Assembly: GCA_965205015.1 (NCBI GenBank) | Contig: OZ242029.1 | Span: 1,664,001-1,728,000, forward strand | DNA from: Candidatus Poribacteria bacterium | GTDB lineage: Bacteria > Poribacteria > WGA-4E > WGA-3G | Length of the DNA stretch: 64,000 bases | Direction: 5' to 3' | Part shown: piece by piece, positions 14,889 through 51,201 of the stretch | How the letters are laid out: each line of letters begins with the position of its first letter | Position numbering within the stretch: position 1 is the stretch's first letter | Notes under the pieces: generated by a model | What the model was told of the DNA's origin: nothing | Seen by the model: only the letters and a program-made list of their open reading frames with translations | The model's database searches: none | Program-made: the position numbers and the translations under genes

Positions 14889-15173
14889 CAGAAGTGCCTC
14901 CTCTGCAAGGCAAAGATACTTAAATTCCAAGCAATTTCTATAAGCAATTTTTATGCCAATTGAACTTTGGTTCTTATGTTAACGTAGATTGCCACTTTGT
15001 AGCATAAACTGTAAGTTTGTGAAAATGTCTTTAAGTGACGTTATGTGTAAATATAAACACATAGGGACGGATGTGGCGATCCGCCCCTACACGTGAAGGG
15101 TTTTTAAGTGTAGTATTTGCGCCAAAACTCGTTCTGAGTAGAATTGAGTACTTTGATGCCAGCGTAAAAGCCT

Positions 15174-17232: not shown

Positions 17233-17736
17233 ATGACAAAAGAGCAGTACGACAGTTGTTATAACACAGGCACCTATCTGACCCTTCCGTATGGTGAGTT
17301 TGTTGAAGCTTATGCGCTTGGGTTGTTAGCACATAAAGACACAGCACAAAGGGTGCGGGAATGGGTTTATGAACAAGGATTTGAACGCGCCGCCGATCTT
17401 GACATAACAGCCTCGGCGGAATTGTGGTCCTTGTTTCGGAATCTCACGCGCGAGCTGTGTATTGAAATGTTGAAGTTACCTGAAGCAAAGAATCCACTTG
17501 CATGCCCTGATTCTGGGCGGGCTGCAGTGCCTACCACTAAACTTGAGGTGTTTTACCAATTGCTGCGAGAGGTGCCTTTCAAGTATAAGCGCGCTTTGCT
17601 CTTGACGTACCTATTTGAAGAGAGTCCGGAACAGATTGCCTATATCTTAAATAAGCCTCCTGAGGAAGTGCATGATCTGATAGATAGAGGAAATGCTGAG
17701 TTAGGCGTAGCGTTCCTTCGTGTTTCGATGCGTTAG
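17233..17736 (+). CDS. small sigma-factor-like protein with a region-4 HTH
   Basis: VPFKYKRALLLTYLFEESPEQIAYILNKPPEEVHDLIDRG resembles ECF sigma region 4. Paralogue at 43523. Confidence 0.65.
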   Translation: MTKEQYDSCYNTGTYLTLPYGEFVEAYALGLLAHKDTAQRVREWVYEQGFERAADLDITASAELWSLFRNLTRELCIEMLKLPEAKNPLACPDSGRAAVPTTKLEVFYQLLREVPFKYKRALLLTYLFEESPEQIAYILNKPPEEVHDLIDRGNAELGVAFLRVSMR

Positions 17737-17850
17737 AACTTATGAAGGGTGCTGCCCGAGCCGTTCAATGTAAGGACGAGCTGTACTCTCGCTCTGTCTA
17801 TGCCGGTCCTAACACCAACGAAAAAAATAATGGCACAAAGAGGTGAATAA

Positions 17851-18384
17851 ATGACTAAAGACGATTTCAGCTTGTGCTATAACAAAAAAAACACTAAAGA
17901 TAGTAAGACTTTGGGAGCCAATGTTTTTGGCCTTGCCTACCGGATCGTTCCGGACGCCGACGCAGCGTGGGAAATTCGGGAGGAGGTGATGGAGATAGGT
18001 CTCAAACGTTGTGCCGAATTTGAAGTAGAAACGGCTTGGGAGGGGAAGGGACACTGGCCTGGCTTAAAAAAACTAACACGTGACCGCTGCGAAAGAATGA
18101 TTTCACGACCGGCGCGAGAAAATCCGCTGGCAAAAGAGACATTAAACCAGTGGCCTTATGACCCATGGGCAGCCGCCATTGCAAACCTGTCTTTTAGATA
18201 TCGACAAATTTTTCTTTTAGGTATGGGATTTAGTAATTGCCCGCGAAACATATACGCCTTACTAAATAAACACAGGTCCAAAAATGAGAAGAAACTTACG
18301 CTGAAAGAGGTCAAAAATCTTCAGGTGAAGGCATCAACTCTCATGGTAACAAACCTCACGGAATCTTATTTACCTAGTACTTAA
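17851..18384 (+). CDS. small degenerate sigma-factor-like protein
   Basis: FGLAYRIVPDADAAWEI (region-2-like), AIANLSFRYRQIFLL (region-4-like). Paralogue at 44129. Confidence 0.6.
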   Translation: MTKDDFSLCYNKKNTKDSKTLGANVFGLAYRIVPDADAAWEIREEVMEIGLKRCAEFEVETAWEGKGHWPGLKKLTRDRCERMISRPARENPLAKETLNQWPYDPWAAAIANLSFRYRQIFLLGMGFSNCPRNIYALLNKHRSKNEKKLTLKEVKNLQVKASTLMVTNLTESYLPST

Positions 18385-18395
18385 AGGAGAATCCC

Positions 18396-20561
18396 TTGGA
18401 CGGAATTATACATCCTAATGTAGAGCAGGTCTGCCGGAAGTACATCTACAAAGATGGGGCATCAGCGGAAATCGCTACTCTCGTTCATGAAAATCCTATT
18501 TCGACTGAAGACCTTGATACCCGTGTGCTGACTTACCTAATGGAAAATAGTCCTTACGCGCGTCACTGGGATACTATAGCTGCGCGTCTAAGAGTGGGCG
18601 ATATTTACACCCAAAAAGCTTTTAACACCCTTGACGCGCCAGCACAGCAGTGTTTACGCTTACGCGCCCTTAATGGTTGTTCTATACCCGAAATTGCCTC
18701 AACGTGTCGGCTGACCCCGCAAAAAGTTCATGCAGTACTGAGAGCGGCGCGATACAATTTCTGGAAAGCGTTTGTTATCTCCGAGGCGCGTGTTCTCCAC
18801 AAATGTCGCCAGTTCGTCTATTCTGATACCGATGCGATGGAGGCTGCGATCGCCAGCTGCTCCCACAGTTGTTCAATTTCCAAGACAGACGTGCTCGCCT
18901 ACTTAGACACCACGCCGGTATCTTGGGAGAATTGGGATACCTTGGCAATTGACTTCAAGGCATTGGACGCTGGAACCGCAGCGCGTGATGTCCAAGAAAT
19001 TTTCGAGACGCTTGAAGCCTCCGAGAAAGCCCTCCTCCGTTTGCGAGTCGTCGATGGACACACCATTGCGACAATCGCGAGGACGCGTGACGAGACAAAA
19101 GCGCATGTCGAAGCGTCCTTAATAACCTATCGGACAAAGTTTTGGAGGACACTCGTTGAAACAGATTGCGTCGTCCTGCGCGAATGCAGACGCTTAATTC
19201 ATGATGATAGAGACGCTGAAGAAATCGCGGTCGCTATCCAGAAGCGTGGCGTACCTGTCGAAAACGTGCGTCGACACATATATGACTATCTGGTGGAACG
19301 TTGGGATACCACACCCGACTGGGACGATCCGGCGTTTATTAAAGTTGTCGAAGCCGTGGTTGACCCAACTGTTCCAAAGAGTGCTGGCTTTGAAGCCGCA
19401 AAGACAGCCTATAATCTGCTTGAATATCCAGAGCAAGACCTTTTGAAATTCAAAGGGGTCGAGGGTGTATCAGATGAAATAATTGCGCAAGTATCCATGG
19501 AACCTCTTAATCAGGTTAAAGAGAAAGCCGGTGCAGCAAAGGAGACGTTTTGGAAACTCTTCACGCGTGAACGGTGGTCCACGCTGGCGTACTTTATCGA
19601 AAAACTCTGTGAAGACGCTGATTCGTCTTCTACTGATATCCTCAAGGTTGAGGCGGAGTACCTCGCCGCTAAGGCGGCTTATAATTCACTGGATGAAATA
19701 GACAAAGAGGTCTTGAGACAGCGGTGTGTGCAAGGACTCTCTGTAGAAGAAATCGCCGCTAAACAGCGGGTCTTCCCTATTGAGGTTGCGGAAACTTTGA
19801 CGGAAGCTCGTAAAAAATTCTATCAAGAATTTTTAGCCGAAATCTATCGTCTCTGGGGGCTGAAGACACCCATTGAAATCGGAGGGGACGAGGATGATAT
19901 AAGTAACGCTTGGGAGACACTACAGGAACAACTTTACAAATTCGTTCCAGAGAATTTCCGCGGTTGGTTAACGACTGCTGCGCAACACTCAAAACTCGAT
20001 TCTAAGAAAAAAGATTACCACCGGAGACTTATTCCCAAAGACCATGGACTCACCTATATGAATCCTGAAGGCGAATTAGTCCCTGTCATATCCGTGCGTC
20101 CACTACAGGCAGATGAAGTGCTTGAAAGAGAAGAATCGGAAAAAAAAGAGTTAAAGTTTTGGGAGAATGAAAGGGAACGCTGGCATGAATTGCTAACAAG
20201 GACCACCGAAGCAATTTTAGGGTCTAAAAAGCCGGAAAAAAAGTTATATCTTTTGATGAATTACATTCTCCAACCGAAACTCAACGAGCTCAGGGGCGCC
20301 GAAACCCGCGTGCCTCACGAGTTTCAGAAGCCCGGCGAGGCGATGGCGGTATCCCACGTCGATCACCAATATCAATCCGAAGTCACGCAGACATGGATCG
20401 GTGAACCCATAGATGCAACGGATAGGAGCATCCGCCGCTACGTTGGCGAAATCATATCCCTTGTGGAGGCGTCTGCAGAAGAGGTTGGCATAGAAGGAAC
20501 AGAACTTGTTGCAGGTTGTGCCCCTATAAAAGAATCGGATGTCAAGAAGAGACGGGATTAG
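18396..20561 (+). CDS. large multi-repeat sigma-factor-like protein (four region-4 HTH units, region-2-like segment, C-terminal HTH)
   Basis: Four L-x-x-x-[EQ]-x-x-LL-x-L-R-x-x-x-G-x-[ST]-x-x-x-IA-type repeats, FRGWLTTAAQH, TQTWIGEPIDATDRSIRRY. TTG start after AGGAG. Confidence 0.7.
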   Translation: MDGIIHPNVEQVCRKYIYKDGASAEIATLVHENPISTEDLDTRVLTYLMENSPYARHWDTIAARLRVGDIYTQKAFNTLDAPAQQCLRLRALNGCSIPEIASTCRLTPQKVHAVLRAARYNFWKAFVISEARVLHKCRQFVYSDTDAMEAAIASCSHSCSISKTDVLAYLDTTPVSWENWDTLAIDFKALDAGTAARDVQEIFETLEASEKALLRLRVVDGHTIATIARTRDETKAHVEASLITYRTKFWRTLVETDCVVLRECRRLIHDDRDAEEIAVAIQKRGVPVENVRRHIYDYLVERWDTTPDWDDPAFIKVVEAVVDPTVPKSAGFEAAKTAYNLLEYPEQDLLKFKGVEGVSDEIIAQVSMEPLNQVKEKAGAAKETFWKLFTRERWSTLAYFIEKLCEDADSSSTDILKVEAEYLAAKAAYNSLDEIDKEVLRQRCVQGLSVEEIAAKQRVFPIEVAETLTEARKKFYQEFLAEIYRLWGLKTPIEIGGDEDDISNAWETLQEQLYKFVPENFRGWLTTAAQHSKLDSKKKDYHRRLIPKDHGLTYMNPEGELVPVISVRPLQADEVLEREESEKKELKFWENERERWHELLTRTTEAILGSKKPEKKLYLLMNYILQPKLNELRGAETRVPHEFQKPGEAMAVSHVDHQYQSEVTQTWIGEPIDATDRSIRRYVGEIISLVEASAEEVGIEGTELVAGCAPIKESDVKKRRD

Positions 20562-20621
20562 ATGGCGGGGAATCAGGGGTATCAAGTTGTAGACCTCTGG
20601 GATCCGCTACAAGATTTCCTG

Positions 20622-20654
20622 TTTTGTCCGATTGGTACCCAGTTATCTCTTAAG
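20622..20654 (+). promoter_or_regulatory. putative alternative-sigma promoter TTTTGTCCG-N18-CTTAAG
   Basis: Same motif and spacing at 22872 and 46119 (+) and at 40338, 59681 and, weakly, 39268 (-). Confidence 0.55.
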
Positions 20655-20744
20655 TGTTTTAGGAAAGGGCAGTTTGAAAACTAATATCTAACGTGCGTGA
20701 AATTCACGCCACTGATAAATATCTAACGAAACAAGGAGAGACTC

Positions 20745-21353
20745 ATGTCGATTACGAAGTTGCAAAATGGCGGCGTCGAGTATAAAATCCGAGTGAAGTC
20801 TGGGGATTTAGCAGCCAAAGGTGAAGGGATGATGAGGATTGTGCCTGCGACTGATGGGCAATTCTCGGTCAACGTGTTATTCCCCAATGAAACGGGTACG
20901 CTGCAGCCTTTAGATTTAACCGCCGTGGAACGTGTCGCATTGGTGGAGAGAAAAATTGGCTGGTTTGGCAAGAACCAATGGGTAAAACCTCTGGTGATCA
21001 CAGCAGGTAATTTCATCGGGGTTCCGCTCGTACTTGACGCGCTTGTAGGTGGTATCCAAACTGCTGGTGAAGCAATTCAGATGCTTGCCGGGGGAACTTT
21101 TATGGCTACTACCTATGGTACTGGGGTTTACACAGGGACGAGACTCACGCGCTTGGCAAGATTCATTCTCACAACCGAAGATGAGAAGCATGCCGTTTTG
21201 GAAGGTTCTGAGAACGCTTTCTGTTTTCTGGATGGTGTGTATACGGCGCCGAACATTCAATTGGAAGAGGTAGCATCTGAAATCCCGGAGGCGCCGGCAG
21301 CAGATGAAGCCTCTGAGGCACCGGCAGCCGATCCTACACCGGCACCGGCTTAA
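20745..21353 (+). CDS. membrane-hairpin protein (family member 1)
   Basis: AGGAG RBS, beta-rich flanks around a Gly-rich hydrophobic hairpin, Pro/Ala tail. Paralogues at 22994 and 46292. Confidence 0.8.
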   Translation: MSITKLQNGGVEYKIRVKSGDLAAKGEGMMRIVPATDGQFSVNVLFPNETGTLQPLDLTAVERVALVERKIGWFGKNQWVKPLVITAGNFIGVPLVLDALVGGIQTAGEAIQMLAGGTFMATTYGTGVYTGTRLTRLARFILTTEDEKHAVLEGSENAFCFLDGVYTAPNIQLEEVASEIPEAPAADEASEAPAADPTPAPA

Positions 21354-21413: not shown

Positions 21414-21878
21414 ATGCGTCTCTTTAAAGAGCCGAACTTTCCGCTCGATGTACTTAAAGGCACAGCCGCACCTCTCGGCACGGGACACGCCTTCTGTATC
21501 CGAGAGGACCCGAATATTGGGCTCCACGGCTGGTTCAAATTTGTGAGCAACAGTCAGAGGCAACAGTTGGCACTGACAGACGTATCCCGACTTGAGATGT
21601 CTCGGGGTATGTTGGAGGTAAATCCTCGAAAATGGGCGGCACCTACAGCGGTTGCAGCGCTGAGTCTTTTCACCCCATTACCTGCGTTTCTGGAATTCGT
21701 TGGAATTGCAGTTGCAGCGGTGTCCAGTGGTTTCACGAAAACGCGTGTGCGTTTCGTCTGTGAGACAGTCGGGGGTGATCATTTTACGGGGAGTCTTTCT
21801 CTAACGGGTTTCGTTGCAGCGAGAACCTTGTGGCAGAAACAGGGAGAATCTCGGTTAAACCCGATGTTCCTAAATTAA
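21414..21878 (+). CDS. membrane-hairpin protein (divergent)
   Basis: LALTDVSRLE, hydrophobic hairpin, RVRFVCETVGGDHFTG. Confidence 0.7.
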   Translation: MRLFKEPNFPLDVLKGTAAPLGTGHAFCIREDPNIGLHGWFKFVSNSQRQQLALTDVSRLEMSRGMLEVNPRKWAAPTAVAALSLFTPLPAFLEFVGIAVAAVSSGFTKTRVRFVCETVGGDHFTGSLSLTGFVAARTLWQKQGESRLNPMFLN

Positions 21879-22026
21879 CTATAGTTTGGACAGTTGTAGC
21901 ATAGGAGACCGTTGGTCTCCTGTGCATCACTATCCCCGATTTTTGTGAGAGTGCCTCGCGGAAATGCAACTGAAAAAAAATAAACTCGGAAACGGAAGCG
22001 AGGGTTCCTCCAGATGGAGGCGAACG

Positions 22027-22476
22027 ATGGAAAAGACACAGCAATCCACACAAGAGTTCCGCGTGAAGGTTATCCATGGAAATTACCAAAAAGGGCGGAG
22101 ACACTGGTTTCGCGTGACGGTTCTCTCCGAGGATAAAATCCACGGGCGTTTTGAGATGAAAACGGAGAAAGGGGACTCGGAAACCCTTGAAATGGAGGCG
22201 ATCGTCAGGTTTGAACAGACCACGAGCGGCAAATTCAGGGTAGGCGACTGGATGATGCACTACTTGCTGCCGCATTCGGTGTCAATGTTAGCGGCGAGTG
22301 CCTCTCTGGTTGATTTACAAGGCATGGAGCTGGCATCACGAAATGTCCGGTTTGTGTGTGCCACAGAGAATAAGTATTTCTGTGGGGAGATAGCACGAAA
22401 CGGTTTCCGTTTAGCACAAGCGTTGATCCAGCAGACAGAACAGGCAGATGCGGTAAAGTCAGGGAATTTCTGCTGA
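22027..22476 (+). CDS. hairpin-family protein (divergent)
   Basis: GGAGG before MEKTQ. FRVKVIHG, EAIVRFE, VRFVCATENKYFCG. Confidence 0.6.
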   Translation: MEKTQQSTQEFRVKVIHGNYQKGRRHWFRVTVLSEDKIHGRFEMKTEKGDSETLEMEAIVRFEQTTSGKFRVGDWMMHYLLPHSVSMLAASASLVDLQGMELASRNVRFVCATENKYFCGEIARNGFRLAQALIQQTEQADAVKSGNFC

Positions 22477-22993: not shown

Positions 22994-23575
22994 ATGTCGA
23001 TTACGAAGTTGAAAAATGGAGGTGTCGAGTATAAAATCCGAGTGAAGTCTGGGGATTTAGCAGCCAAAGGTGAAGGGATGATGCGGATTGTGCCTATGAC
23101 TGATGGGCAATTCTCGGTCAACATGTTATTCCCCAGTGAAACGGGTACGCTGCAGCCTTTGGATTTAACCGCCGTGGAACGTGTCGAATTAGTGAAGAGA
23201 AAAATTGGCTGGTTTGGCAAGAACCAATGGGTTAAACCGCTCGTCGTTACAGCGGGGAATTTCATCGGGATGTACATCGCGGCGCCGTTCGTAATTGGCG
23301 CATTCAGTGCTCACATAGCTGAAGCAGCAATGCTCGTCGGGGGTACTTTCGTTGCGACAACTTATGGTGCTGGCGTGTATACTGGCTCGAAACTCAATCG
23401 CTTGGCAAGATTCATTCTCACAACCGAAGATGAGAAGCATGCCGTTTTGGAAGGTTCTGAGAACGCTTTCTGTTTTCTGGATGGTGTGTATACGGCGCCG
23501 AACATTCAATTGAAAGAGATAGTCCCTGAAACCTCTGAGGAACCGGCAGCCGATCCTGCACCGGCACCGGCTTAA
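22994..23575 (+). CDS. membrane-hairpin protein, recent duplicate of 20745
   Basis: Near-identical flanks, divergent hydrophobic hairpin. Confidence 0.8.
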   Translation: MSITKLKNGGVEYKIRVKSGDLAAKGEGMMRIVPMTDGQFSVNMLFPSETGTLQPLDLTAVERVELVKRKIGWFGKNQWVKPLVVTAGNFIGMYIAAPFVIGAFSAHIAEAAMLVGGTFVATTYGAGVYTGSKLNRLARFILTTEDEKHAVLEGSENAFCFLDGVYTAPNIQLKEIVPETSEEPAADPAPAPA

Positions 23576-23896: not shown

Positions 23897-26398
23897 ATGA
23901 ACACCCAATCCCACGAGGGACACACCCCCGATACTTCCATTGATCTGCGAACCGGACGCGTTGAGGAAACGATACTTGAAAATCCGGAACTCGTCCAAGC
24001 AATTGAGAGCCACCTGCCCGAGACGGTCCCTTCCCAAATTGACCGTTTCATCCAGCAGTACCTCCGATTAGAACATCTGAAAGCGTTCTTGGCGGCGACT
24101 CCGACTGCCAAGGAGGGTTTTGAAGCCTTACTTGATAAAGCCACGCGTGCCCTCTCATATCAACGTCCGTATCGGATCGCCTTGGTTGGCCGGACGGGTG
24201 TTGGGAAAACGCAAGTGCTGAATACCTTGGTCGGTAGAGAACTCTTAGCCAGTCAGCAGGGACAACCCGTGACCGGCGCTATTACGGAGATTTTCCAAGA
24301 CGCTTCTGAAGGCGAAGAGCGGGCAGTGATCCAGTACAGAGATATGGGAAATATCCGCAGACTCATCCAACAGGAACTCATTGAGCGGTTTGGGTTAACC
24401 AACGCGGATTTAGGGATGCCAGATGAACTGAGTGAAGAATTTGCTACGACGCTTCGAGAGATAGAACCCCCTTTGGGCAATGATCCCGAACGCTTTAAAA
24501 ATGTGCAAACCGCACTTGCAAATGTGATTGATCAGTATCTTCGTTTCAAAGATGCGGATGTGCCGACAGAATTCTCCTTGGCAGATAAGGATGCGTGTGC
24601 GGAACTTAATTCATTGATTACCGAGAACAGCGAACGGAATCAGGATGAAAACACTCGGATAGTCGGGTTAGTCCACTCGGTTGCTTATTACATTCACGGC
24701 GACGTTCATCAGGAAATCGTGCCGGAACTGCAGCTGCCACGGAACACCTGCCTTGTTGATCTGCCCGGTATTTCAGGGGCACCCTTGCACGACATCATTA
24801 TCACTGAAGGAATTCAGGACGCCGATGCCGTGGTGTTCATCGTGAATCCGAAGCGGGTGGGTCAATCAGATGAAAAGGCATTGGTCGGTCGGATTCGAGA
24901 GGCTATCAGTCTGAATGGCGAGCTGGATGCTGCAGAACAGATTTTCCTTGTTCTCAATGCGATTGATGAAAGTGCTGTTGACCCGGAACGCATGGATAGG
25001 GCACCGATGCTGGAGCTTGCGCGTGAATTGTACGTCGACGCTGGAAAAATGCCGAACCGAGATGGCGATGTCCCGTATTTTGAGTTGTCTGCGTTGGCGG
25101 CATCTTTGGCGCGGGTCCAGTTGCAAGGCGGCACGCTTAGCGACCCACGCAAATATGCGGCTATCGTTCAAACCCTCGCCCCCGATGCGGTCCTCGAACG
25201 CGCGGGGACGGACGCTGAGATTGACCATCGAGCGGTGTTGGCAGGGAGTGGCATCTCAAAATTGGTCACAGCCCTGAACGATTTTGCTGGCACACGCGTT
25301 GCGAAACAGATTCAGACTGCCAACGAGGCGATAACAAAGATTGTGAACCGCCTTATCAGTCAGTATCAGATGCAAGTCGCCTCAAAGTCTTCAAAAATCA
25401 GTGGAGACTTTGAGAGTCGCGATGAGGAGAAGCTCGTTCAACGGTGCCGCGAACTTGAAGATTTACTCTTAACCTTTCGGAATACACAACTGAGGAATAA
25501 GGCAGATTTGACGAGCGAGTTACGCAATCAAGCCAATACACTGTGCGACGGTGTTGACGCAGCCGTCCGGGAACAACTGCCGCATCTGTGGAAAAAAAAT
25601 GTTGCCCGGGATACAGACGTCGTCCGTGCGGTGTCGTCTTATACGGTTCAAGCGCGACAGTTGGTTTCGGAGGTTGAGGCGATGGTCTGGTCGGAGTTGA
25701 CCTTCCGACTGAAGTATCTTGCCACCTCGCTTGTGGATCATTATGAGACTGTGTTTGCAGCGGATGCGATGCAAAAGCAGTTGATTGACGGGAGTTACGG
25801 GCATCCTTTGGCGATGGAAGCGTTTGGAGACACCGCGATCGCGGCACTTTCCTCAGAGATGCGGCGCGGTTTGGAAGAGTTCAGTGAGCGGTTAATCGTG
25901 GCGTTTATTCCGGAGCCAGCGTTCCGTTTCATTTCACCAGGGCAAGACGCAAGGCTCAAGACGAAATCTGCACGCGGGAACCTGAGCGGTTTACCGAGAC
26001 TCCCGAAAGCACTGACCCCCATAAATGGACACAAAAACGGAGGAAAGGTTTTAGCTACCTCTGATGACTTGATGGCAATAGTGGCGCGGATTCCACCGAC
26101 ACCTTATGTCGAACCGAGCGTTTTTGACCCGTTTGTTCAAGCGGTGCGTGAACGTTATGCGTCTGTGGTGCTGGTTAACGGCGTAAACGCACTCGTCAAT
26201 GTGTATGAATACGAGATGTTGAAAGCCGAGCGATCCCTCCATACGAACATTGAGAAGTTATTCCGGCAGTTCCGGGATACGCGACTTTCGGATCCGGCGT
26301 TGTTTGAGCGTATGTTGAGAGATACAACCGATCTGACGGCGCGTCAGGAGATTAACGATCTGAATATGAAAATTGCTGAACTCTCTGAAATACAGTAA
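23897..26398 (+). CDS. dynamin-like GTPase
   Basis: G1 GRTGVGKT, G2 PVTG, G3 DLPG, G4 LNAID, long helical stalk. Confidence 0.85.
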   Translation: MNTQSHEGHTPDTSIDLRTGRVEETILENPELVQAIESHLPETVPSQIDRFIQQYLRLEHLKAFLAATPTAKEGFEALLDKATRALSYQRPYRIALVGRTGVGKTQVLNTLVGRELLASQQGQPVTGAITEIFQDASEGEERAVIQYRDMGNIRRLIQQELIERFGLTNADLGMPDELSEEFATTLREIEPPLGNDPERFKNVQTALANVIDQYLRFKDADVPTEFSLADKDACAELNSLITENSERNQDENTRIVGLVHSVAYYIHGDVHQEIVPELQLPRNTCLVDLPGISGAPLHDIIITEGIQDADAVVFIVNPKRVGQSDEKALVGRIREAISLNGELDAAEQIFLVLNAIDESAVDPERMDRAPMLELARELYVDAGKMPNRDGDVPYFELSALAASLARVQLQGGTLSDPRKYAAIVQTLAPDAVLERAGTDAEIDHRAVLAGSGISKLVTALNDFAGTRVAKQIQTANEAITKIVNRLISQYQMQVASKSSKISGDFESRDEEKLVQRCRELEDLLLTFRNTQLRNKADLTSELRNQANTLCDGVDAAVREQLPHLWKKNVARDTDVVRAVSSYTVQARQLVSEVEAMVWSELTFRLKYLATSLVDHYETVFAADAMQKQLIDGSYGHPLAMEAFGDTAIAALSSEMRRGLEEFSERLIVAFIPEPAFRFISPGQDARLKTKSARGNLSGLPRLPKALTPINGHKNGGKVLATSDDLMAIVARIPPTPYVEPSVFDPFVQAVRERYASVVLVNGVNALVNVYEYEMLKAERSLHTNIEKLFRQFRDTRLSDPALFERMLRDTTDLTARQEINDLNMKIAELSEIQ

Positions 26399-26482
26399 CA
26401 TTGGGGCGGTGCCATCTGCCCTTAATACCCAATTTTATCAATGATAGGACTTACGCAAATTTAGCAAATACCGGGCTTATGG

Positions 26483-28804
26483 CTACAAAAAATAGCCGAG
26501 GTCCTGAATGAATGTCCGATTTGTTGCAGCAAATGCAAGGTATTGCGGGGACATGCTTAGAGAAGTGATTGCCTCATTATTAATCATCTCAGCTGGTATC
26601 TCCAGCAAATCATACTTCTTAATTCCTCGAAATTTTGTTTCCGCGAACAACTTTCGCCAATGGGGTTTCCAGTATAGACGCTTATTGAGAAAAACTGCGC
26701 GCATAAAAGAGGAATCTATAGTCATGCGACATAATTTTCTATCTTTTGTGGCTACTATAAAATGGTTGAAATCAAAATACGGCCTATCAATGTCATCTGC
26801 CAGGTCATTTGTAATGATAGAAGTAAATTCATCACGCAATTTCCAACTATAATGCGGATGTTCCGTGGTTCCAATCCGCCACATTTTAAATAGGTTATCC
26901 GTATCTTTTGATAACCAGAACTTCCCGAAGTGGCCGTGCTTGATAAAACCTACCCAAGTAACAGGGGCCGAATGTCGCCTCCAAACAGACTCTTCTTTAT
27001 CAACCCATGGTAGGTGAAGTTGGACTGTTCCATCTTGCCCCGCAGAGGCGATGTGTCCACCATCGGACGACCATGAGACCCAATTAACCCATCCTTTATG
27101 TCTGCTAAGTGTTTGCTTATTTTTTTTCTCAACTACGTCCCACAATTTAATGGTCTTGTCCCGACTACCCGAGACGAGAAACGGGCCGTCGGGGGCAAAC
27201 GCAATAGAGGTAATAAAGTCAGTGTGCTCCGTGAGTTCAGCGGATCTCCGAGTTTTTAGTTCATGCAATTGGATAGAGTTTTCCGCCGCTACGGCTAAGA
27301 ACATGCTGTCGCTGGAAAAAGCAACGGAAGTGACCGCATACCCAGCATCCAAGACATACGCAGCATCGACAAACGGACCCTCCAAAAGGACAGGTTTCCG
27401 CGTTCTCTTCGCGGAAACATCTATCTCCGCGGAAACATCCCATAGATAGACAGTTGAACCTGTCACTGTCGCGAGGTGTTTGCTATCTGGAGAAATGGCA
27501 ACCGACGATACAGCGTTAGGGTGGTCAATGATTGCCTGCCCGCTTTCCGTGTACGTAACAGTAGGGTTGTCGGTTGTATCCTTCTTTTTCTTTCTGATCG
27601 AGGGGGTGTCATGCTTGTCCTCTTTTTTCTCGGTTGTGATCGAGGGGGTGTCATGCTTGTCCTCTTTTTTCTCGGTTGCGAGGATCTTCAGAGGGCCTCG
27701 CACGGGAGCGTATTCGGTCTCAGGCATGGATTCAAACACTGTAAGTCCGAAAGAATTTTCAAGGTGAATTTTCAAGCCTGGGAGCCTTGAACTACCCCCT
27801 ACCAAGTGGATTACCGGTTCTTCTCTGCCCTTATCCTTCAGTTCCGCTTTAATCCTTTCTATATGAGGCTTAACTGCCTCGCCTATACGCTCGACTTGTG
27901 TATCAATAATCGGCTGAATATCGTCTTTGGTCAATACGACTGTTTGTCCTCGGAGGACGGATATCTGGTGCCTTAAGCTGTCCCAACTTTCGGGATAATC
28001 ACAATATTCCTCTTTACAGCGGCGGACCTGCCTCCGGAAAAATATTCTGTCTGCCGCTACTTGGTTGCTATTGTTGCTTTTTCTTTTGACAACCTTAAGC
28101 AGCTCGGCGTCCACATCTCTGCCTCCGATTGTTTTGCAGTCTGTGATTTCTATATTGTAGGGATTGCTATCGTCCTCTGAACGGTGTAGATAACTAAAGT
28201 CTAATGTCCAGCCCCCGCAGTCCAGGATCACAATGTCATCCGTAGTTTTTGCGCCCATGGCTTGAAACATCTGTGCTGCTGCTAAAGGCTCCGCTACGAC
28301 CTCGATCGTCTCGAACCCTGCGTTCTTGGCACTTGTCATCAAAATTGCTATCTGATCAGAGTCATATCGTGGGGTATACGTGAGATAGACTGTAGTTGGC
28401 GGCTTCCTTCCAACAAAAACAGGATGCTTTCTTGCCTTTTCGCACAGTTCGGTAAGGAATACAGTCATTAGGTGTTCCGAGGGGTTTGTCTTGCTGGGAT
28501 CTACGCCGAGTAACTTAGAAAGTCGTTTTTGATACCTCCCCAAATCCCTTTTAAAATCCAGTATGGGATTCCATTTTCTTGAAGTTGTTTTAAGTTTCAA
28601 GTCGTGTTCAATGATACGTTCAGCTTCTTCACCTACAATTATCTTTCCGGAGTTCTTTTCACTGGCAAAAACACTCGGAGTGTAAGGCTTAGAGTTCTCT
28701 CCCCACGTCATGAGTTCTATTTGCTCTGTATTTGGATTATAGAACGCCATTTTCGTGCGTGTATGGCCGAAATCTATAGAAACTGCGTCGTTAATATCAG
28801 TCAT
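26483..28804 (-). CDS. Hsp70-family NBD fused to WD40 repeats
   Basis: SIDFGHT, EPLAAA, LDCGGWTLD, GGRDVD, LVGGSSRLP. WD40s such as EHTDFITSIAFAPDG...LVSGSRDKTIKLWD. Confidence 0.85.
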   Translation of the reverse strand: MTDINDAVSIDFGHTRTKMAFYNPNTEQIELMTWGENSKPYTPSVFASEKNSGKIIVGEEAERIIEHDLKLKTTSRKWNPILDFKRDLGRYQKRLSKLLGVDPSKTNPSEHLMTVFLTELCEKARKHPVFVGRKPPTTVYLTYTPRYDSDQIAILMTSAKNAGFETIEVVAEPLAAAQMFQAMGAKTTDDIVILDCGGWTLDFSYLHRSEDDSNPYNIEITDCKTIGGRDVDAELLKVVKRKSNNSNQVAADRIFFRRQVRRCKEEYCDYPESWDSLRHQISVLRGQTVVLTKDDIQPIIDTQVERIGEAVKPHIERIKAELKDKGREEPVIHLVGGSSRLPGLKIHLENSFGLTVFESMPETEYAPVRGPLKILATEKKEDKHDTPSITTEKKEDKHDTPSIRKKKKDTTDNPTVTYTESGQAIIDHPNAVSSVAISPDSKHLATVTGSTVYLWDVSAEIDVSAKRTRKPVLLEGPFVDAAYVLDAGYAVTSVAFSSDSMFLAVAAENSIQLHELKTRRSAELTEHTDFITSIAFAPDGPFLVSGSRDKTIKLWDVVEKKNKQTLSRHKGWVNWVSWSSDGGHIASAGQDGTVQLHLPWVDKEESVWRRHSAPVTWVGFIKHGHFGKFWLSKDTDNLFKMWRIGTTEHPHYSWKLRDEFTSIITNDLADDIDRPYFDFNHFIVATKDRKLCRMTIDSSFMRAVFLNKRLYWKPHWRKLFAETKFRGIKKYDLLEIPAEMINNEAITSLSMSPQYLAFAATNRTFIQDLGYFL
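27595..27678. repeat. 42-bp tandem duplication in the Hsp70-WD40 linker
   Basis: Two copies encoding TEKKEDKHDTPSI. Confidence 0.85.
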
Positions 28805-28827
28805 TTTGCATTTTCCCCTTGGATTCG

Positions 28828-30609
28828 TTAAAGGCGTTCATATATAGTGCCAAGTCGAAGAGTCGCATGGTCAAGAATCTGATTCAATTCATTGGAACTC
28901 GCCCCATACCTCTCAGTTTCCCAGTAGTCCAAAAGTTCCGAACACTTTTTCTCCTTTTCCGCGGACGTTGAACCGTTAGAAATTCTAAGACGTCTTGAAA
29001 CAGATGTCCCGTTTTGTCCGAAGAGACGCTGGAGTTCTTGTTTCTTTTGATTCGTTATTTCAGAATCCCCAAGCGTGTTCAAAAGATTGAGGCATCTGAT
29101 GTCTTCCTCAAAGAGGTGCGCGTTTTCTTCAATTTTGGCTTTCGTCTGGTGAAGGCTTTCCAACAATTGGTGAATTTGTGCTATTCGCTCTTCTATACTC
29201 GGTATCAAGTCGTTGAGATAGTTTTCGGATGTCTCGTATACATCATAAATCGTGGGCCATGCTGATTCCTTGAGATACGTTTCTAAGGTTTCAAGGTCTT
29301 TAACAATTTGAGGCGTGGCAGCGAATACCTCTTTCCAAGTATGACTGGAATCTTCTACCCGTTGTTTTTCTTGCTTCCAATCCGCCTTGAGTTCCGCTTG
29401 AGCGTGGCGAAACGCTTCGACAGCTACTGGGAAATCCCTGATCCCTTCTCGTGTTTTCGCCAGAACTTTCCGAAAGTTTTCTACAAGTTCCTGGCGTTTT
29501 TGCAAATCACTCTCAAGAGATTCCCGCAACTCCCTAAGCGTGTGTAGATGCGATACAATCGTTTGTAAGATTTTCCTGCTTTCACTCGCAGTGATTCCGG
29601 TTTCGGATTTCAAACTATCCCTTATTTCGGGTTTCAAACTATCCCTAAATTTTTCACCGCCCTGTTTGTGTGCTTCTTCCGCTTCGACACTGTCTTTTAG
29701 GATTTCCACTGCTTTTTCATACACATTTGATACAATTCTGTAGACAGTTAAGACTTTGAGCAGATGAGGGTCAGGGAGATAGGATAATTGTTTTTGCAAA
29801 GCTTCGGTTTCATGCGTGAGAAGTAAAGGAGGTGCCTCGCTTCCGAATTCTTCACGGAGCAATTCACACTTTCTTTCGGCGTTTCCATCTGAGGATTGGA
29901 CGACAATGATGCTGGCTTCGGGGAGAATGCCAAGTGTCTGTTTGTATTCACCAAATTTTGCGCGAATGCTGCGAACAGTTGCCGGATGCACGTCAGAAAT
30001 CACATAAATAAGTACGTGTGGAATAACCCCGTGCTGCGTTGTTGCTGCGTGTTCGCCGTGAAGGAATTGCTGGATTTCTGCGTCAAGGTGTTGCTGCGTG
30101 CTGCCTATGCCGGGGGTATCAATGAGAGCAATATTGTGGCTTCTGAGAAATTCTGAGTTCACAAAAAAGTCTATCAAAGCGGTTTCCGAGACGTTCTTGC
30201 CGCCTGCAATCCAGTCTTTAAGGGTCTCGTTAACATCCTCAAGTGCCAGATCCTCATGCTCCCTCTTGCGCCAATGGACCCGAAACTTATCGGATTGTTT
30301 TTCACTGCCGTATTGGAAGCGATTGATTGTTTCTGTGGTTACAGTATACCCTATAGGCGCACACGTCTCACCGACCATTTCATTTAAGAGGGTTGATTTT
30401 CCTGCTCCTTGTGGGCCCAGGAGAACACCAACGATGGGTTCCTTAGACATTTGCGCACTGAATACAGAAGCCAATCGCGCCTTCAGTTTCCTTGCAAATT
30501 CGGCAGTTTTAGGGTAGGAAAGCAGAAGTTCACAAACATCTTCTGCAAACTCGCGGACGAGTTTTTCGAGGTCTCCGGCGGAAATAGCGTAAGGATTTGG
30601 TGTCGTCAT
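28828..30609 (-). CDS. dynamin-like GTPase, IniC-like
   Basis: GPQGAGKSTLLN, DTPGIGS. C-terminal RLFGQNGTSVSRRL resembles my recollection of the IniC tail. Confidence 0.75.
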   Translation of the reverse strand: MTTPNPYAISAGDLEKLVREFAEDVCELLLSYPKTAEFARKLKARLASVFSAQMSKEPIVGVLLGPQGAGKSTLLNEMVGETCAPIGYTVTTETINRFQYGSEKQSDKFRVHWRKREHEDLALEDVNETLKDWIAGGKNVSETALIDFFVNSEFLRSHNIALIDTPGIGSTQQHLDAEIQQFLHGEHAATTQHGVIPHVLIYVISDVHPATVRSIRAKFGEYKQTLGILPEASIIVVQSSDGNAERKCELLREEFGSEAPPLLLTHETEALQKQLSYLPDPHLLKVLTVYRIVSNVYEKAVEILKDSVEAEEAHKQGGEKFRDSLKPEIRDSLKSETGITASESRKILQTIVSHLHTLRELRESLESDLQKRQELVENFRKVLAKTREGIRDFPVAVEAFRHAQAELKADWKQEKQRVEDSSHTWKEVFAATPQIVKDLETLETYLKESAWPTIYDVYETSENYLNDLIPSIEERIAQIHQLLESLHQTKAKIEENAHLFEEDIRCLNLLNTLGDSEITNQKKQELQRLFGQNGTSVSRRLRISNGSTSAEKEKKCSELLDYWETERYGASSNELNQILDHATLRLGTIYERL

Positions 30610-32759
30610 TGAAGGGATGTCTCCAACTCTTTTAAAGTCTCGTCAATGTTTTCCAATAATGTCTCTGCTCCAAGTTTTTGACTCTGGTGCTTTTGGCTTT
30701 CGGAACCCAAACTCCTGATTTTTTCCTCGGCTTCTTTCTCAAAACTTTCAAACTCGTTTCCCATTTCTGTTCTGTAAGTTCTAATCAGTTTCTCAAGTTC
30801 GCGATTCGTGTTGTCGTAGGCTAACGTTAGGATACCGTTCAAAATAGTTTCTATCTCAGCAGTTGTCTTTTCCCTTTGCATAATTTCTTCTTCGCGGACT
30901 TTGAAGACCGTTGAGATCGACCAAAGTGCACCCGCGGCAAGTGCCATCAAACCTGATGGCTCAACCAATGCTGCTGCACCCACACCCTTAAAAACTTTCT
31001 CAAAAGTACCTGAGGCTATCATCAGCGGGTACATGAGACTCTGCGGGGTTTGGCTCCGCCTCCACACACTATCGGGTAACTGACGAAGATTGTCTACATA
31101 GCGAATTGATAATTTAACCGCAGGGGATTCAACTGAACCTTCCCAGTGGCGCTGCATCTGCTCAGCTATATCGCGGCACAATTTATCCATGGATTCAATG
31201 TAAGAAAGAAAGATAGGCTCAATTTTCTTGAGGCACACGTCAACATAAAGCCGCTGAATCTCCTCTACCTCTGTTATCAGCCGTTTAGCCTTCATGTCCC
31301 TGAATTGATCCATGACTTCTGTGGTTATGGGTCTGTAGCCATACGCACCAAACGTCTCACTCATTCGGGTTTGTGTGTCTGAAGAAATATCTGCAGCTTT
31401 CTGGTCAAAAGTCGCTTTGAGGGGTTTATAGGTCTCGTTAAACCAGTTTTCAAATTTTGAGAGTTCCTCATTATTGAGACCAACGTGTAGTAGGAAGGTT
31501 TCAACCTCAAATTTGAGTTCCTGTAGAAAATCACGCGATCGGCTGTTGATTTCTTTATCGGTTTCACCCAACTTTTCTTCAAGAAATTCGAGCAGTTGAG
31601 AAAAGTTGCTGGCTTCCAGCGCCTTCTTTTTCTCATTTGGGTCCTGCGTTTGATCGGCCTTCCTTTTTTCTGTCGTACTGACTGAAAAATACTTGATATC
31701 TCCCGGCGGCAGGTCAAGCACTTCCGAAATGATTTGCACGTTGCTGCGCCGCTGTTCCTTCCATGCTCTCGTTTCTATGTATGTGTCGATTTTCGTTTGG
31801 ACGAAATAAATGGCATCTGTAATTGCGCGAAGTCGTTTTAAGGCTTCTTTTTCTGCCTGTGTTATTAGGCCGTTAAGGACAAAAAGAAAGGCGTTCCCAC
31901 TTAACAAGTAAGGCAACCTATCTTCGTCGTCGATCAAATCATCGAGATGTGGGGTGTCCATAATTGCAGTCCAGGTATGATGATTTTTCAAAAAGTCGTT
32001 GTGGTCGAGACCGATCAGGATAGATTTAACATCGTCTCGGTTCGCATAGTTAGCGACGGCTTGCGCATCAATCTTTTTATCATCCTTTTTGCCTGTTTTG
32101 GAGATGGCGGTGAACTCCTGTTTTCTTTTACCAATGAAGTCAGTAGGGGTCGTGAGGTCAGTAGGTGTAGGCGGCTTAATATCAAGTTTGTCTATTGTTT
32201 CTGTTGTGCCATCAATCTTTTTAAAAATAATTGTTTCGTCATCCGGGGTGTCTCGTTCGATCTGACCAATTTTCCTGTCGTCAAACGTGACAAGAGTGGA
32301 AAGGGATTTAGGAAGTTCCCGTTCTCCGTTACCAGTCTTGAGCGTAACGGTCGTTGGGGTTTCCGCAATGATTTCGCCATTTATTTTCTCATTCGTAGGA
32401 TCGACTGTTAATTCAGCGTAACCGCGCGCCATCAGATTGGCGAGGTCTTCCACCGGTTCATCGGATGCTGCCCAATGGAGGATTCTGTAAACCGTTGTGG
32501 TGTATGGGGAAAGCAGTTTTGGTTCTTCGAGTATGCCGCAAATCAGCTGCGATTTGCCGACCCCCGGTTTTCCACTGGTAACAACGAGGTTGAATTGCTG
32601 GAAATCATAGTCGTCCTTAATTTCCTTAATGCGGTCGGCTGTTTCTGGCACTTCGCTCACGAGGTTTACAAATTTCTGTGCGTAATCGCTGATTATTACC
32701 CGAAAATTTTTCGGCGACTTTTCCTGTGGCTTCTCTTCTTGTGGATTTGAGTGTATCAT
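30606..32759 (-). CDS. dynamin-like GTPase, IniA-like, with a C-terminal hydrophobic segment
   Basis: GKPGVGKS, DTPH, QTKID, FSVS. Hydrophobic GVGAAALV...ALAAGALW. ATGA overlap with the next gene. Confidence 0.8.
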   Translation of the reverse strand: MIHSNPQEEKPQEKSPKNFRVIISDYAQKFVNLVSEVPETADRIKEIKDDYDFQQFNLVVTSGKPGVGKSQLICGILEEPKLLSPYTTTVYRILHWAASDEPVEDLANLMARGYAELTVDPTNEKINGEIIAETPTTVTLKTGNGERELPKSLSTLVTFDDRKIGQIERDTPDDETIIFKKIDGTTETIDKLDIKPPTPTDLTTPTDFIGKRKQEFTAISKTGKKDDKKIDAQAVANYANRDDVKSILIGLDHNDFLKNHHTWTAIMDTPHLDDLIDDEDRLPYLLSGNAFLFVLNGLITQAEKEALKRLRAITDAIYFVQTKIDTYIETRAWKEQRRSNVQIISEVLDLPPGDIKYFSVSTTEKRKADQTQDPNEKKKALEASNFSQLLEFLEEKLGETDKEINSRSRDFLQELKFEVETFLLHVGLNNEELSKFENWFNETYKPLKATFDQKAADISSDTQTRMSETFGAYGYRPITTEVMDQFRDMKAKRLITEVEEIQRLYVDVCLKKIEPIFLSYIESMDKLCRDIAEQMQRHWEGSVESPAVKLSIRYVDNLRQLPDSVWRRSQTPQSLMYPLMIASGTFEKVFKGVGAAALVEPSGLMALAAGALWSISTVFKVREEEIMQREKTTAEIETILNGILTLAYDNTNRELEKLIRTYRTEMGNEFESFEKEAEEKIRSLGSESQKHQSQKLGAETLLENIDETLKELETSLQ

Positions 32760-35626: not shown

Positions 35627-36559
35627 TTTTTTGCCTCCATATATTGTAATTATAGAAGTTACCGTTGGTTTGTCAAGTTCAAATAATAGAACACTCTATT
35701 TTAGCAATATTTTCATCAGGAAAATATGCATCCATTCAATATATTGTAATTGTTGTAGCAAGTTTCATGCCAATTATCTATTTTAAGAAACATAGGTGGA
35801 CCCTACGTTTGGAAAATTTTCGGATGCGTTCCAAGTCGTTCCAAGTCGATTGCGAGTCTCGACTCTTATCATATTTATGACATTGACCGAGATGGCGACA
35901 CCAAACTTCGGCATCTTCAAAAATCTGCTGTTTCTATAATGTTACTAAATTTGTAATTTTAAGTCAAGTTAAGCAGTGGAAAAAATACAACTTGGCGGAG
36001 ACTCCAAGATGCTACCGAAGACCCCTAAATTGACACCTATGGTGCGGTTTCTCAACCCCACCTACCGGGCCGGGGCTCAAAACGCGTAAAAACGGAAAAC
36101 TAAACAGCCCTATATCGAATTCACATTCGTATAGATTGTCCACTACTTAATTAACCTTCCAAAAGCAAGGTACAATATTCCTATTATCATCACCGTACAC
36201 AAAATCCCGTAAAAGATTTCCATGATTTTTCTCCTGATATAGGGGGAAATCTCCCCGGTTGGTTCTGGTTAAGGATGTGCCCCCGGTCGCTGTGATGGGG
36301 CTAACGTGATTTAAAACCGCCATAGGATTCTTACCCTGTCATTATAGAGTCGGCGGTAAGTCGCCATTTTTTTCAAGACACTTTTTCGTAAAGTAGTATT
36401 TGCCCCACCAGACTGCTATGATGAGAACAACGCAGATAACGAGTTGCATCGCTGATGCCTCCTTTCCTTTCGGTGAGTTAACGACTGTTAGATGCTTGTG
36501 AGCCAACTACCTGTCGATTCTGCCCCTGCCAAAGAGATGAGTGCCGCAAAGGAATATCC

Positions 36560-39596: not shown

Positions 39597-40262
39597 TTAC
39601 TGGTGAGAAGAAACGCCACATCGTGGTCTGCGGCGTTCCTTTTTTCGGTTGCGTGGTTCAAACTTCTCCTTTTTCGTGTGGGATCGTTTTCGGCTGTGCT
39701 GTTCTAACTGTTTCATTTTTCGCTTTGACTTTGGCTTCGCATTCGTCTTTGGCTGCACAGGATGTTCCGTTTTCTTATCCTCATGAATTTCCGCGTGCCC
39801 TCTATAGTAAATTACATAATGGAGGCTGCCACTGTGCAAACTCAGTTTTTTTAATCGCGGGCGGGCTATGCATTTAGAACAACTGCATAACGAACGAAAG
39901 AATGACGGGTGTGTGTCTATCCTCCATGATTCAAGGATAAGCAATCTACGCCTACCAGATGCGTTGCGGTGGTGCTTTGGATTCCCTCTGTGTTGAAAAT
40001 CGGAGCAGTACCTGTAGATGAATACGAGTACTTTTCCTCGGTACCGAACGCTGTGTTCGCCTAACGCTATCCATTTCCAGTGGTCCGAATTTTTTGGATG
40101 GAATTGACCTGCATAAACTAATCCACTCGTTTTTTCGATGGGACGAACGAAATAGTCGCTATCCTGATGGTGTCTCAACTGGCTATTATGGCTGTGGGCA
40201 TTCAATACTAGGACCGCCTGTAGCACACAAACAACAATGCCTATTGTATATCTAAGCTTCAT
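39597..40262 (-). CDS. hypothetical secreted protein with a basic C-terminal tail
   Basis: Signal-peptide-like N-terminus, lies downstream of the promoter-like motif. The tail may be degraded. Confidence 0.45.
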   Translation of the reverse strand: MKLRYTIGIVVCVLQAVLVLNAHSHNSQLRHHQDSDYFVRPIEKTSGLVYAGQFHPKNSDHWKWIALGEHSVRYRGKVLVFIYRYCSDFQHRGNPKHHRNASGRRRLLILESWRIDTHPSFFRSLCSCSKCIARPRLKKLSLHSGSLHYVIYYRGHAEIHEDKKTEHPVQPKTNAKPKSKRKMKQLEQHSRKRSHTKKEKFEPRNRKKERRRPRCGVSSHQ

Positions 40263-40300
40263 GATGTCTTCCCCTATTGTTGACTTTCATCGGTAGTGAG

Positions 40301-51196: not shown

Positions 51197-51201
51197 TCAC
51201 C

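Follow-up and report, generated by a model that had tools for sequence, protein, structure and literature searches.

Tandem sigma-4-type units and a predicted sigma-like partner in a multi-unit protein of Candidatus Poribacteria

Sigma factors and the proteins that mimic them are the main switches of bacterial transcription, and extracytoplasmic function (ECF) sigma factors normally comprise one region 2 and one region 4 in about 200 amino acids (aa). This layout is not kept by the product of a gene at 18396-20561 (+) in a stretch of 64,000 nucleotides (nt) from Candidatus Poribacteria, an uncultivated phylum of sponge symbionts (contig OZ242029.1, positions 1,664,001 to 1,728,000; the whole stretch is called the window, and positions are given in its numbering). 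The product (P0001) has 721 aa with four sigma-4-type domains and a terminal helix-turn-helix (HTH), which raises the question whether such a protein can still work as a sigma factor, or what else a string of sigma-4 domains may serve for.

The original prediction, made from the sequence alone, took P0001 for a sigma factor with additional region-4 units acting as anti-sigma decoys or extended DNA binders. Its multiple sigma-4 domains and the in-frame difference in unit number between two paralogues were borne out by our analysis, but the label of a sigma factor was not: judged from sequence, P0001 is not an ECF sigma factor by the criterion of a sigma-2 domain. We prefer to read it, with a probability of roughly 0.4, as a sigma-mimicking holder or scaffold for a small sigma-like partner and not as a stand-alone sigma factor, because a sigma-2 domain is not demonstrable, the gene is placed like that of an anti-sigma factor, and both halves of the partner would be covered by the C-terminal domain in the predicted complex. 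P0001 is a new architectural variant within the world of sigma factors and sigma mimics, and its family is tiny and confined to Poribacteria.

Domain make-up of the multi-unit protein

The reading frame is open throughout and starts with TTG, 7 nt after the Shine-Dalgarno sequence AGGAG (18385-18389), which is common to P0001 and its paralogue P0002 (44684-46078, +, 464 aa). Since AGGAGAATCCC-TTG-GAC-GGA-ATT stands identically before both paralogues, the TTG start is sound. An assembly error as the origin of the three-unit form is ruled out by an independent sponge-metagenome contig (X4, 4218 nt), which spans 17233-20734 without gaps and shows 20 differences. The contigs of four sequencing runs, which drop rare variants, showed no joint within 18396-19580. 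From its N-terminus, P0001 is composed of three full units of ∼125 aa each (residues 9-131, 133-259 and 260-395, encoded at 18420-18788, 18792-19172 and 19173-19580), a half unit (residues 396-487, 19581-19856) and a 235-aa C-terminal domain (residues 488-721, 19857-20558), all on the forward strand (+).

The three units of ∼120 aa named in the original prediction, starting with VEQVCRKYIY (residue 9), VLHKCRQFVY (133) and VLRECRRLIH (260/261), proved to be real. A hidden Markov model (HMM) built from them and applied to P0001 and its family delimits the three full units as given above and finds only the HTH half in the half unit (residues 406-481, HMM positions 50-127). As this HMM is circular for P0001, the independent test of homology was a BLASTP comparison with P0002, in which units 1 and 2 align to the single unit of the paralogue (E 2e-13 and 1e-10). 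Identity between units amounts to 21-34%, and 15 positions are invariant, including Cys-Arg at the start, Trp-Asp in the middle and Phe-Trp at the end of the unit. No DNA repeat longer than 25 nt is left within the gene, so the unit duplications are old. For the same reason, present-day slippage or phase variation of the unit number was ruled out.

That each unit ends in a region-4-like HTH, as had been predicted, is supported by sequence and by structure. Pfam Sigma70_r4_2 matches the whole protein in three stretches (E 1.4e-13). When the pieces were scanned singly, unit 1 scored 26.4 bits (cut-off 25.7), unit 2 reached E 0.017 and the half unit E 0.001, and unit 3, which is present in every family member (VLRECRRLIHDD), and the C-terminal domain were without a match. 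The predicted fourth HTH (residues 419-487, behind a short leader) was confirmed by Pfam Sigma70_r4 at residues 430-455 (E 1.4e-6). The AlphaFold model of P0001 was built on 16 sequences (mean predicted local distance difference test, pLDDT, 77.6; predicted template modelling score, pTM, 0.59); units 1 and 2 each consist of a helical N-half and an HTH, and the sigma-4 parts of the units have a pLDDT of mostly 83-94. Compared by VIA-align, the HTHs of all three full units (residues 63-126, 190-258 and 325-395) superpose on sigma-4 domains of known structure (Z 7.1-9.2, root mean square deviation (rmsd) 1.3-3.3 Å, 61-70 residues): unit 1 on 8jzt_C (Z 7.1, rmsd 2.1, 64 residues), unit 2 on 9m9d_F (Z 7.4, rmsd 1.9, 64 residues), and unit 3 on 3hug_K (Z 9.2, rmsd 3.3, 70 residues) and 4nqw_A (Z 8.8, rmsd 1.7, 63 residues). 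The fourth HTH had no match of its own among the matches listed, which a single domain can fill. Foldseek gave no match at E ≤0.001 with either the full model or a model of the C-terminal domain.

Comparison of 36 family units with an ECF alignment (hhalign) covered ECF positions 43-194 with a probability of 96.5% (E 7.7e-10), carried mostly by sigma-4. The unit start (CR..IyxDxdAxeiA) falls on ECF region 2.1/2.2, and region 2.3/2.4 is unmatched. A PDB profile search with the unit alignment A3 returned the same register (AlgU 39-52), which was not significant, and sigma-4 stretches only, at E 0.05 or worse; the family alignment A1 found a single weak match (9n9q_C RpoE, E 0.071). The PhyR-family model NF006623 of NCBIfam matches residues 26-122 with E 3.4e-4 and 20.5 bits, below its cut-off of 240. 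We read each full unit as a putative cut-down ECF sigma factor that would have kept sigma-4 and lost the part reading the -10 element. The sigma-4 part of the units is established by these comparisons, and a candidate sigma-2 remnant in the N-half is a lead.

Sigma70_r2 matched neither the whole of P0001 (E up to 1) nor any of its five pieces (E up to 10), and it matched two real ECF factors of the window at 3.1e-5 and 8.6e-20. The sigma70-ECF superfamily model TIGR02937 is passed by P0001 (47.4 bits, cut-off 42.9) through residues 411-477 alone, which represent region 4. Automatic annotation would therefore call an ordinary sigma-70 factor, and this label would mislead regulon predictions in Poribacteria. 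The original prediction had also placed a region-2-like segment in the C-terminal domain. The conserved YKFVPENFRGWLTTA motif of this domain (residues 514-528, 19935-19979, +) is written YKFVPENFRGWL in the family, is among its best conserved parts and has Y514, P518, N520 and L525 invariant; hhalign sets its PENFRGWL on ECF region 2.3/2.4 in register, with no significance (E 0.013, probability 3.4%), and the region-2 assignment could not be upheld.

The C-terminal domain, which is recognised by its own profile, reached a pLDDT of 67.6 when folded alone with 21 sequences, and residues 12-56 of that model form two helices with a pLDDT of 54-66. When the model was compared with 48,161 chains by VIA-align, Z stayed below 8 throughout (best Z 6.7), so that a sigma-2 fold is not demonstrated there; helices 12-56 found no sigma-2 domain among the matches listed, and no sigma-2 fold emerged from fold searches of the P0001 and C-terminal models, in which the C-terminal part is poorly modelled. 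Sigma-4-type matches were found on residues ∼95-215 of the C-terminal model, among them sigma-32 (Z 6.2, rmsd 3.9, 87 residues) and SigL (Z 6.2, rmsd 2.7, 75 residues), and the model would be compatible with a possible fifth sigma-4-like domain carrying an insertion. The terminal HTH of the original prediction (residues 663-697, 20382-20486, +), with its nearly invariant ATDRSIRRY, was retained as a predicted pair of helices, but its sigma-4 nature stayed doubtful, as the sigma-4-type fold matches only reach Z 5-6.2 and are mixed with truncated globins.

Unit number and evolution of the family

P0002, encoded in a second cassette of the window, is 65% identical to residues 259-713 of P0001 and, by BLASTP and the unit HMM, has a single full unit before the half unit and the C-terminal domain. 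It also starts with MDGI, and in agreement with the original prediction this start is joined in frame to unit 3. The junction is in register, with MDGIxYP of the short form continuing into (I/V)LRECRR exactly where unit 1 starts in the long form.

A word-indexed search delimited the family as 16 clusters, two of them from the window. HMMER over 1.84 billion representatives returned 10 proteins at E ≤0.001, including two distant one-unit forms (P0021 and P0023) and one ordinary ECF factor. Only one of 175 Poribacteria species genomes, here called G127, contains the family, and the five genomes with the closest EF-G gave no family match. The EF-G encoded in the window shares 95% identity with that of Candidatus Poribacteria MAGs. 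Pattern scans with alignment A1 picked up 215 pattern stretches in genome contigs and 594 in metagenome contigs, none of which was confirmed as a relative. In the ESM Atlas, P0002 resembles sigma-like clusters of ∼200 aa (0.94-0.95).

The survey of repeat counts in homologues that the original prediction had called for gave one full unit in eight, three in four and four in another four of the 16 proteins, and the half unit and the C-terminal domain are present in every one of them. A tree of the shared part was calculated from 18 rows (the 16 family proteins and the G127 protein, with P0021, on a long branch, as outgroup), and its root is uncertain. On this tree the four-unit forms are deepest (P0011 and P0018, then P0007/P0008), and one-unit forms occur in at least two separated places: P0017, which has kept a remnant of a unit start before its single unit, and a clade with 99/99 support that also contains three-unit forms. 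Within this clade, P0016 and the G127 protein stand apart from the other one-unit forms, and the forks there are drawn open. The unit number appears to have changed several times, at least twice on the tree; since the root is uncertain, we claim these changes and not their direction.

In the N-half, unit 1 of P0001 is closer to unit 1 of P0007 (50.9%) than to unit 2 (37.5%), and in the C-half it is closer to unit 2 (65.2%) than to unit 1 (55.4%). This apparent mosaic, based on 56-66 positions per half, is the pattern expected from unequal crossing-over, and by such in-register recombination the module number may have been reset several times. The family would illustrate how sigma-4 domains, as in repeat proteins, can be gained and lost in register. 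An internal duplication of ∼29 aa (DEKIAGFNAAKTA... twice) was noted in the last full unit of the four-unit homologue P0007 (residues ∼460-520), where it forms an insertion in the family alignment.

With such changes in number, the additional N-terminal units may be no more than evolutionary baggage, with a core that works alone and a neutral unit number. One-unit forms are indeed the commonest, and unit 3 changes more slowly than units 1 and 2, as seen from the identities between P0001 and P0006 (77-84% in unit 3, 58-71% in units 1 and 2). However, the units are open and confidently folded, their 15 invariant positions persist at a mutual identity of 21-34%, and four-unit forms were retained in four deep lineages, so that we hold neutral baggage to be highly improbable.

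The predicted sigma-like partner and the proposed role of the protein

An anti-sigma gene usually directly follows its sigma gene. At the three loci at which the genomic context was read (the two cassettes of the window and G127), the multi-unit gene is directly preceded by a gene for a divergent ECF-like protein of 171-180 aa, the predicted binding partner. It has 177 aa in the first cassette (17851-18384, +, with the stop codon 11 nt ahead of the TTG) and 180 aa in the second (44129-44671, +). The gap to the multi-unit gene is 11-12 nt in both window cassettes and 26 nt in G127. Compared with ECF factors by hhalign, the 177-aa group aligns over regions 2.1 to 4.1 with a probability of 69-74% (E 3-4e-5; 69% and 4.3e-5 for a 17-member alignment). 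Sigma70_r2 does not match the 177-aa partner. A second small sigma-like protein of 167 aa is encoded farther upstream (17233-17736, +); it scores 25.4 bits with Sigma70_r4_2, just below the cut-off, is a paralogue of the 177-aa protein (E 6e-15; about 1e-14 between the two mutually), and its group aligns with ECF factors at a probability of 37%. The partner family comprises 17 clusters versus 16 of the multi-unit family. Six partner clusters from outside the window agree with multi-unit clusters in the size of the longest contig, and P0159 agrees with the G127 contig (22223). The C-terminal domain was also considered as a demonstrable paralogue of the small sigma-like proteins; this was dropped because hhalign against the partner family was not significant (E 0.02-0.15), and the partner families against the units were likewise not significant in this range.

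A heterodimer was predicted for the pair of the second cassette, P0002 (alignment A1) and its 180-aa neighbour (alignment A5). The complex reached an ipSAE (interaction prediction score from aligned errors) of 0.78 (runs 0.79, 0.78 and 0.73), the best control 0.02. A value of 0.78 is reached by 116 of 157 solved complexes and by 2 of 215 mismatched pairs, counts that apply only approximately here, as we supplied the alignments ourselves. At least 56% of contacts recur between the runs, and the partner has a pLDDT of at least 79. On P0002 the interface covers residues 344-424, equivalent to 593-673 of the 721-aa protein, and runs from the end of a long helix through the invariant KKPEKKL helix and the insertion as far as the approach to the terminal HTH. 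The start of the KKPEKKL helix (residues 611-617 of P0001, 20226-20246, +; 362-368 of P0002) forms its centre. On the partner side, residues 11-31, 100-105, 120-128 and 161-172 take part; they belong to a sigma-2-like helix at the N-terminus, the invariant DPW, the RQIFLL helix, which is sigma-4.1-like, and the helix at the C-terminus. In the model, invariant positions meet across the interface, K362-L368 of P0002 and D103, P104, F120, L121 and F126 of the partner. The C-terminal domain is thus predicted to bind the ECF-like protein encoded upstream.

We therefore prefer a sigma-mimicking holder, which could be a regulatory protein assembled from decayed ECF sigma factors. Its conserved core would consist of the last full unit, the half unit with sigma-4 only and the 235-aa C-terminal domain. 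This domain would clamp the 177/180-aa partner by its long helix and KKPEKKL helix, together with the insertion and the first part of the terminal HTH, touching both its sigma-2-like and its sigma-4-like half as anti-sigma factors do, and the small sigma-like protein may be sequestered or handed over in this way. The N-terminal sigma-4 modules might provide additional docking surfaces for small membrane proteins of the operon, other sigma-like proteins or the flap of RNA polymerase. In this form the decoy role of the original prediction would live on.

Several observations weigh against this reading. The ∼60-aa helical N-half of the units, taken alone, aligns weakly with region 2.1/2.2 (hhalign, E 0.0025, probability 12%), and the conserved PxNFxGWL motif of the C-terminal domain lies outside the predicted partner interface. 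The best fold matches of the C-terminal domain are weak sigma-4-type ones, mixed with truncated globins (Z 5.9) and helical bundles; no anti-sigma family was found among the Pfam and NCBIfam matches of P0001 or among the fold matches listed for the C-terminal model (best Z 6.7, pLDDT 67.6). The ipSAE expresses model confidence, and likeness to solved sigma/anti-sigma complexes could have raised the predicted score. The genomic context comes from three loci. By net charge the units cannot be told apart from real sigma-4 domains, and therefore DNA binding by some units is possible: the sigma-4 half of unit 1 of P0001 carries +5 to +6 and the others -1 to -3, three ECF controls carry +1, +2 and +11, and the 36 family units have a median of -0.5 (range -12 to +7). 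Net charge and isoelectric point were consequently rejected as discriminators of DNA binders and decoys.

The main rival is a two-subunit sigma factor of the SigO-RsoA type, in which the 177/180-aa protein would give the sigma-2 functions and the multi-unit protein the sigma-4 and DNA-binding functions, with the extra units reading upstream boxes or holding the flap. In SigO-RsoA, a known split ECF factor, sigma-2 and sigma-4 reside on two different polypeptides (PMC7826278). Alignment of the partner with ECF regions 2.1-2.4, a multi-unit protein with four to five sigma-4-type HTHs and no sigma-2 domain, and the adjacency of the two genes at all three loci together with their predicted binding would fit such a split, as would the register of PxNFxGWL with region 2.3/2.4 and the basic, nearly invariant terminal recognition helix DRSIRRY. 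However, the partner is not a bare sigma-2, since a sigma-4.1 helix of its own and a C-terminus like sigma-4.2 are retained in it; a Sigma70_r2 match is absent from it, and the predicted interface covers its N-terminal and C-terminal helices, which resembles occlusion more than productive assembly. We regard a split sigma factor as rather unlikely. Still less probable in our view is a composite sigma factor of new design, in which the partner and the C-terminal domain would form a working sigma-2/sigma-4 pair and the N-terminal train would read -35-like boxes or capture several anti-sigma-like membrane proteins. If this were true, promoter choice or the induction threshold would be tuned by a repeat number that evolves by in-register recombination.

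Gene neighbourhood and comparison with known systems

The operon around the multi-unit gene is conserved. In the first cassette the genes for the 167-, 177- and 721-aa proteins are followed by four genes for small proteins of 202 aa (20745-21353, +), 154 aa (21414-21878, +), 170 aa (21964-22476, +, no family match) and 193 aa (22994-23575, +), and by the gene for an 833-aa dynamin-like GTPase (23897-26398, +; weak LeoBC match in PADLOC, 1.3e-15). The second cassette encodes, in this order, a 706-aa dynamin-like GTPase (40557-42677, +; weak LeoA match in PADLOC, 2.5e-14), an ordinary ECF sigma factor of 212 aa with Sigma70_r2 and r4_2 (42750-43388, +), a 167-aa sigma-like protein (43523-44026, +; 80% identical to the first one), the 180-aa partner, P0002 and a 189-aa protein (46292-46861, +). 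G127 has a row of 171 aa, 499 aa (one unit), 199 aa, 154 aa (84% identical to that of the window) and a GTPase of 856 aa, which shares 82% identity with the 833-aa protein and takes the same position. The order of partner, multi-unit protein, ∼200-aa protein, 154-aa protein and dynamin-like GTPase is thus the same in the window and in G127. At E 1e-60 or better, G127 is also the only one of the 175 Poribacteria genomes with an orthologue of the 833-aa protein, so that this GTPase and the multi-unit protein are co-distributed. The shared row and the same single genome indicate that the row behaves as a patchily distributed accessory module. PADLOC gave no match for the sigma-like and small membrane proteins.

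The small proteins (20745-21353, 21414-21878, 21964-22476, 22994-23575 and 46292-46861) have a beta-rich N-part, a hydrophobic middle rich in glycine and a short C-part, and the family is without a match in Pfam, NCBIfam and PADLOC. By sequence comparison, the 202-aa protein has paralogues in the 193-aa protein (79% identity) and the 189-aa protein (60-79% identity over the set). Four such genes follow the three-unit gene, one follows the one-unit gene of the window and two follow the one-unit gene of G127. For the 202-aa protein, the ESM Atlas yielded leads below 0.9 only, including a cluster with PH_gly_zipper in 10% of its members. Dynamin-like GTPases (833, 593 and 706 aa) and proteins of 717 and 575 aa with LeoBC-like matches are distributed over 23897-32759, 40557-42677 and 47410-54750 of the window. 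Alongside them, Hsp70/actin-fold ATPases are fused to WD40 repeats (773 aa) or ankyrin repeats (810 aa), and a similar Hsp70-like gene lies near the G127 cassette. Two PcfJ-like genes stand side by side at 55861-57273 (-) and 57795-59168 (-) (3.2e-9 and 1.1e-11); this pairing and the patchy distribution of the cassette hint at a mobile or accessory region. Being closely linked to a dynamin-like GTPase of LeoA/LeoBC type and sharing its patchy occurrence, the module may control an accessory island for membrane surveillance or defence. For the preferred holder, an accessory island including the dynamin-like GTPase would probably be the regulated target.

Eight sites of the motif GATTTNCNNTTTTGTCCGATT (up to three mismatches) are present in the window versus 0.18 expected, at 17141, 20613, 22863 and 46110 (+), at 29003 (+), and at 39289, 40359 and 59702 (-). 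Four sites, three of them exact, lie 90-180 nt upstream of the genes for the 167-, 202-, 193- and 189-aa proteins; GATTT..TTTTGTCCGATT is a short way of writing these recurrent upstream motif regions. As GATTTNCNNTTTTGTCCGATT also occurs at unrelated genes and within a ∼75-nt repeat, it may be a general promoter element; judged by these positions, it may belong to the cassette gene set or be a general poribacterial one. The ∼75-nt element has two near-identical copies, at 40260-40392 (-) and 59600-59735 (-), and contains TTTTGTCCGC and a TATAAT-like box; one copy is located ∼100 nt upstream of a 221-aa gene (39597-40262).

The motif before four cassette genes would suit a multi-HTH transcription factor that does not replace sigma and whose HTHs bind arrays of sites, with the unit number matching the number of sites. 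The sigma-4 fold is a general DNA-binding HTH, and the sigma-4 half of unit 1 is basic. Such a binder seems distinctly unlikely to us all the same: most units are neutral to acidic, the motif extends to unrelated genes and the repeat, and the partner interface would stay unexplained. Pfam GerE, the family of LuxR-type HTHs, matched neither P0001 nor P0002 at E up to 1, and precomputed GerE labels within the family are confined to P0011 and P0018.

Other promoter-like elements were noted. The G127 cassette is preceded by an exact sigma-54-type TGGCAT-N5-TTGCA (L082 12061-12076, -) and by a divergent sigma-54 activator gene (L082 12326-14368, +; Sigma54_activat 1e-67), with a direct repeat TTCTGGAAAAAATTTCA x2 further upstream. 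No sigma-54-type promoter precedes either window cassette, and the upstream regions of these two could not be aligned convincingly. Exact TGGCAY-N5-TTGCW sites of the window (14943-14958, 35757-35772 and 59440-59455, all -) precede an alpha-2-macroglobulin/PBP1c pair, an EF-hand protein gene and a PcfJ-like gene. With at most one mismatch, eight matches were found versus 3.8 expected, a number reached in 5 of 100 shuffles.

To our knowledge, the variations of sigma factors described so far are extensions, split factors such as SigO-RsoA and a single mimic domain as in PhyR. Titles and abstract openings on Poribacteria sigma factors and on tandem or multiple sigma-4 domains mention no protein with several sigma-4 domains. 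A putative parallel is the sigma-like (SL) domain of alphaproteobacterial PhyR, a degenerate ECF sigma factor, with sigma-2 and sigma-4 remnants, that acts as a protein-binding mimic and does not initiate transcription. PhyR is an antagonist of the anti-sigma factor NepR, according to abstracts (PMC4814048, PMC5830050). Unlike PhyR, P0001 belongs to another phylum, has no receiver-domain family among its Pfam matches at E up to 1 and no NepR-like gene, and consists of tandem modules without region 2.3/2.4; its predicted partner is itself sigma-like and would be bound by the C-terminal domain and not by the units.

SigO-RsoA distributes sigma functions over two adjacent, co-transcribed polypeptides that bind each other (PMC7826278), and the poribacterial pair may be comparable in this. 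In the latter, one subunit has two to five sigma-4 domains while the other keeps sigma-2-like and sigma-4-like parts. ECF factors with N-terminal extensions (BldN, ECF121) also carry extra sequence N-terminal to the part bearing sigma-4; such extensions are rarer and generally shorter than C-terminal ones (PMC7826278). In the P0001 family, by contrast, the extension comprises as many as four additional modules derived from sigma factors, and a sigma-2 domain is absent.

Class I anti-sigma factors (RseA, RslA, RsiW) resemble P0001 in a gene right after that of a sigma-like protein and in a predicted interface on both partner halves. In contrast to them, P0001 has no membrane segment and matches neither an anti-sigma family nor, in Pfam, the zinc-motif anti-sigma family; its predicted binding domain is C-terminal and the rest consists of sigma-4 domains. 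By analogy, P0001 would work most like PhyR-type mimicry and sigma/anti-sigma pairs, yet its family matches include neither the receiver domain of the former nor an anti-sigma domain as in the latter. A protein with two to five sigma-derived modules in a row, and with another sigma-like protein predicted to be held by it, would represent a new design for a transcriptional switch.

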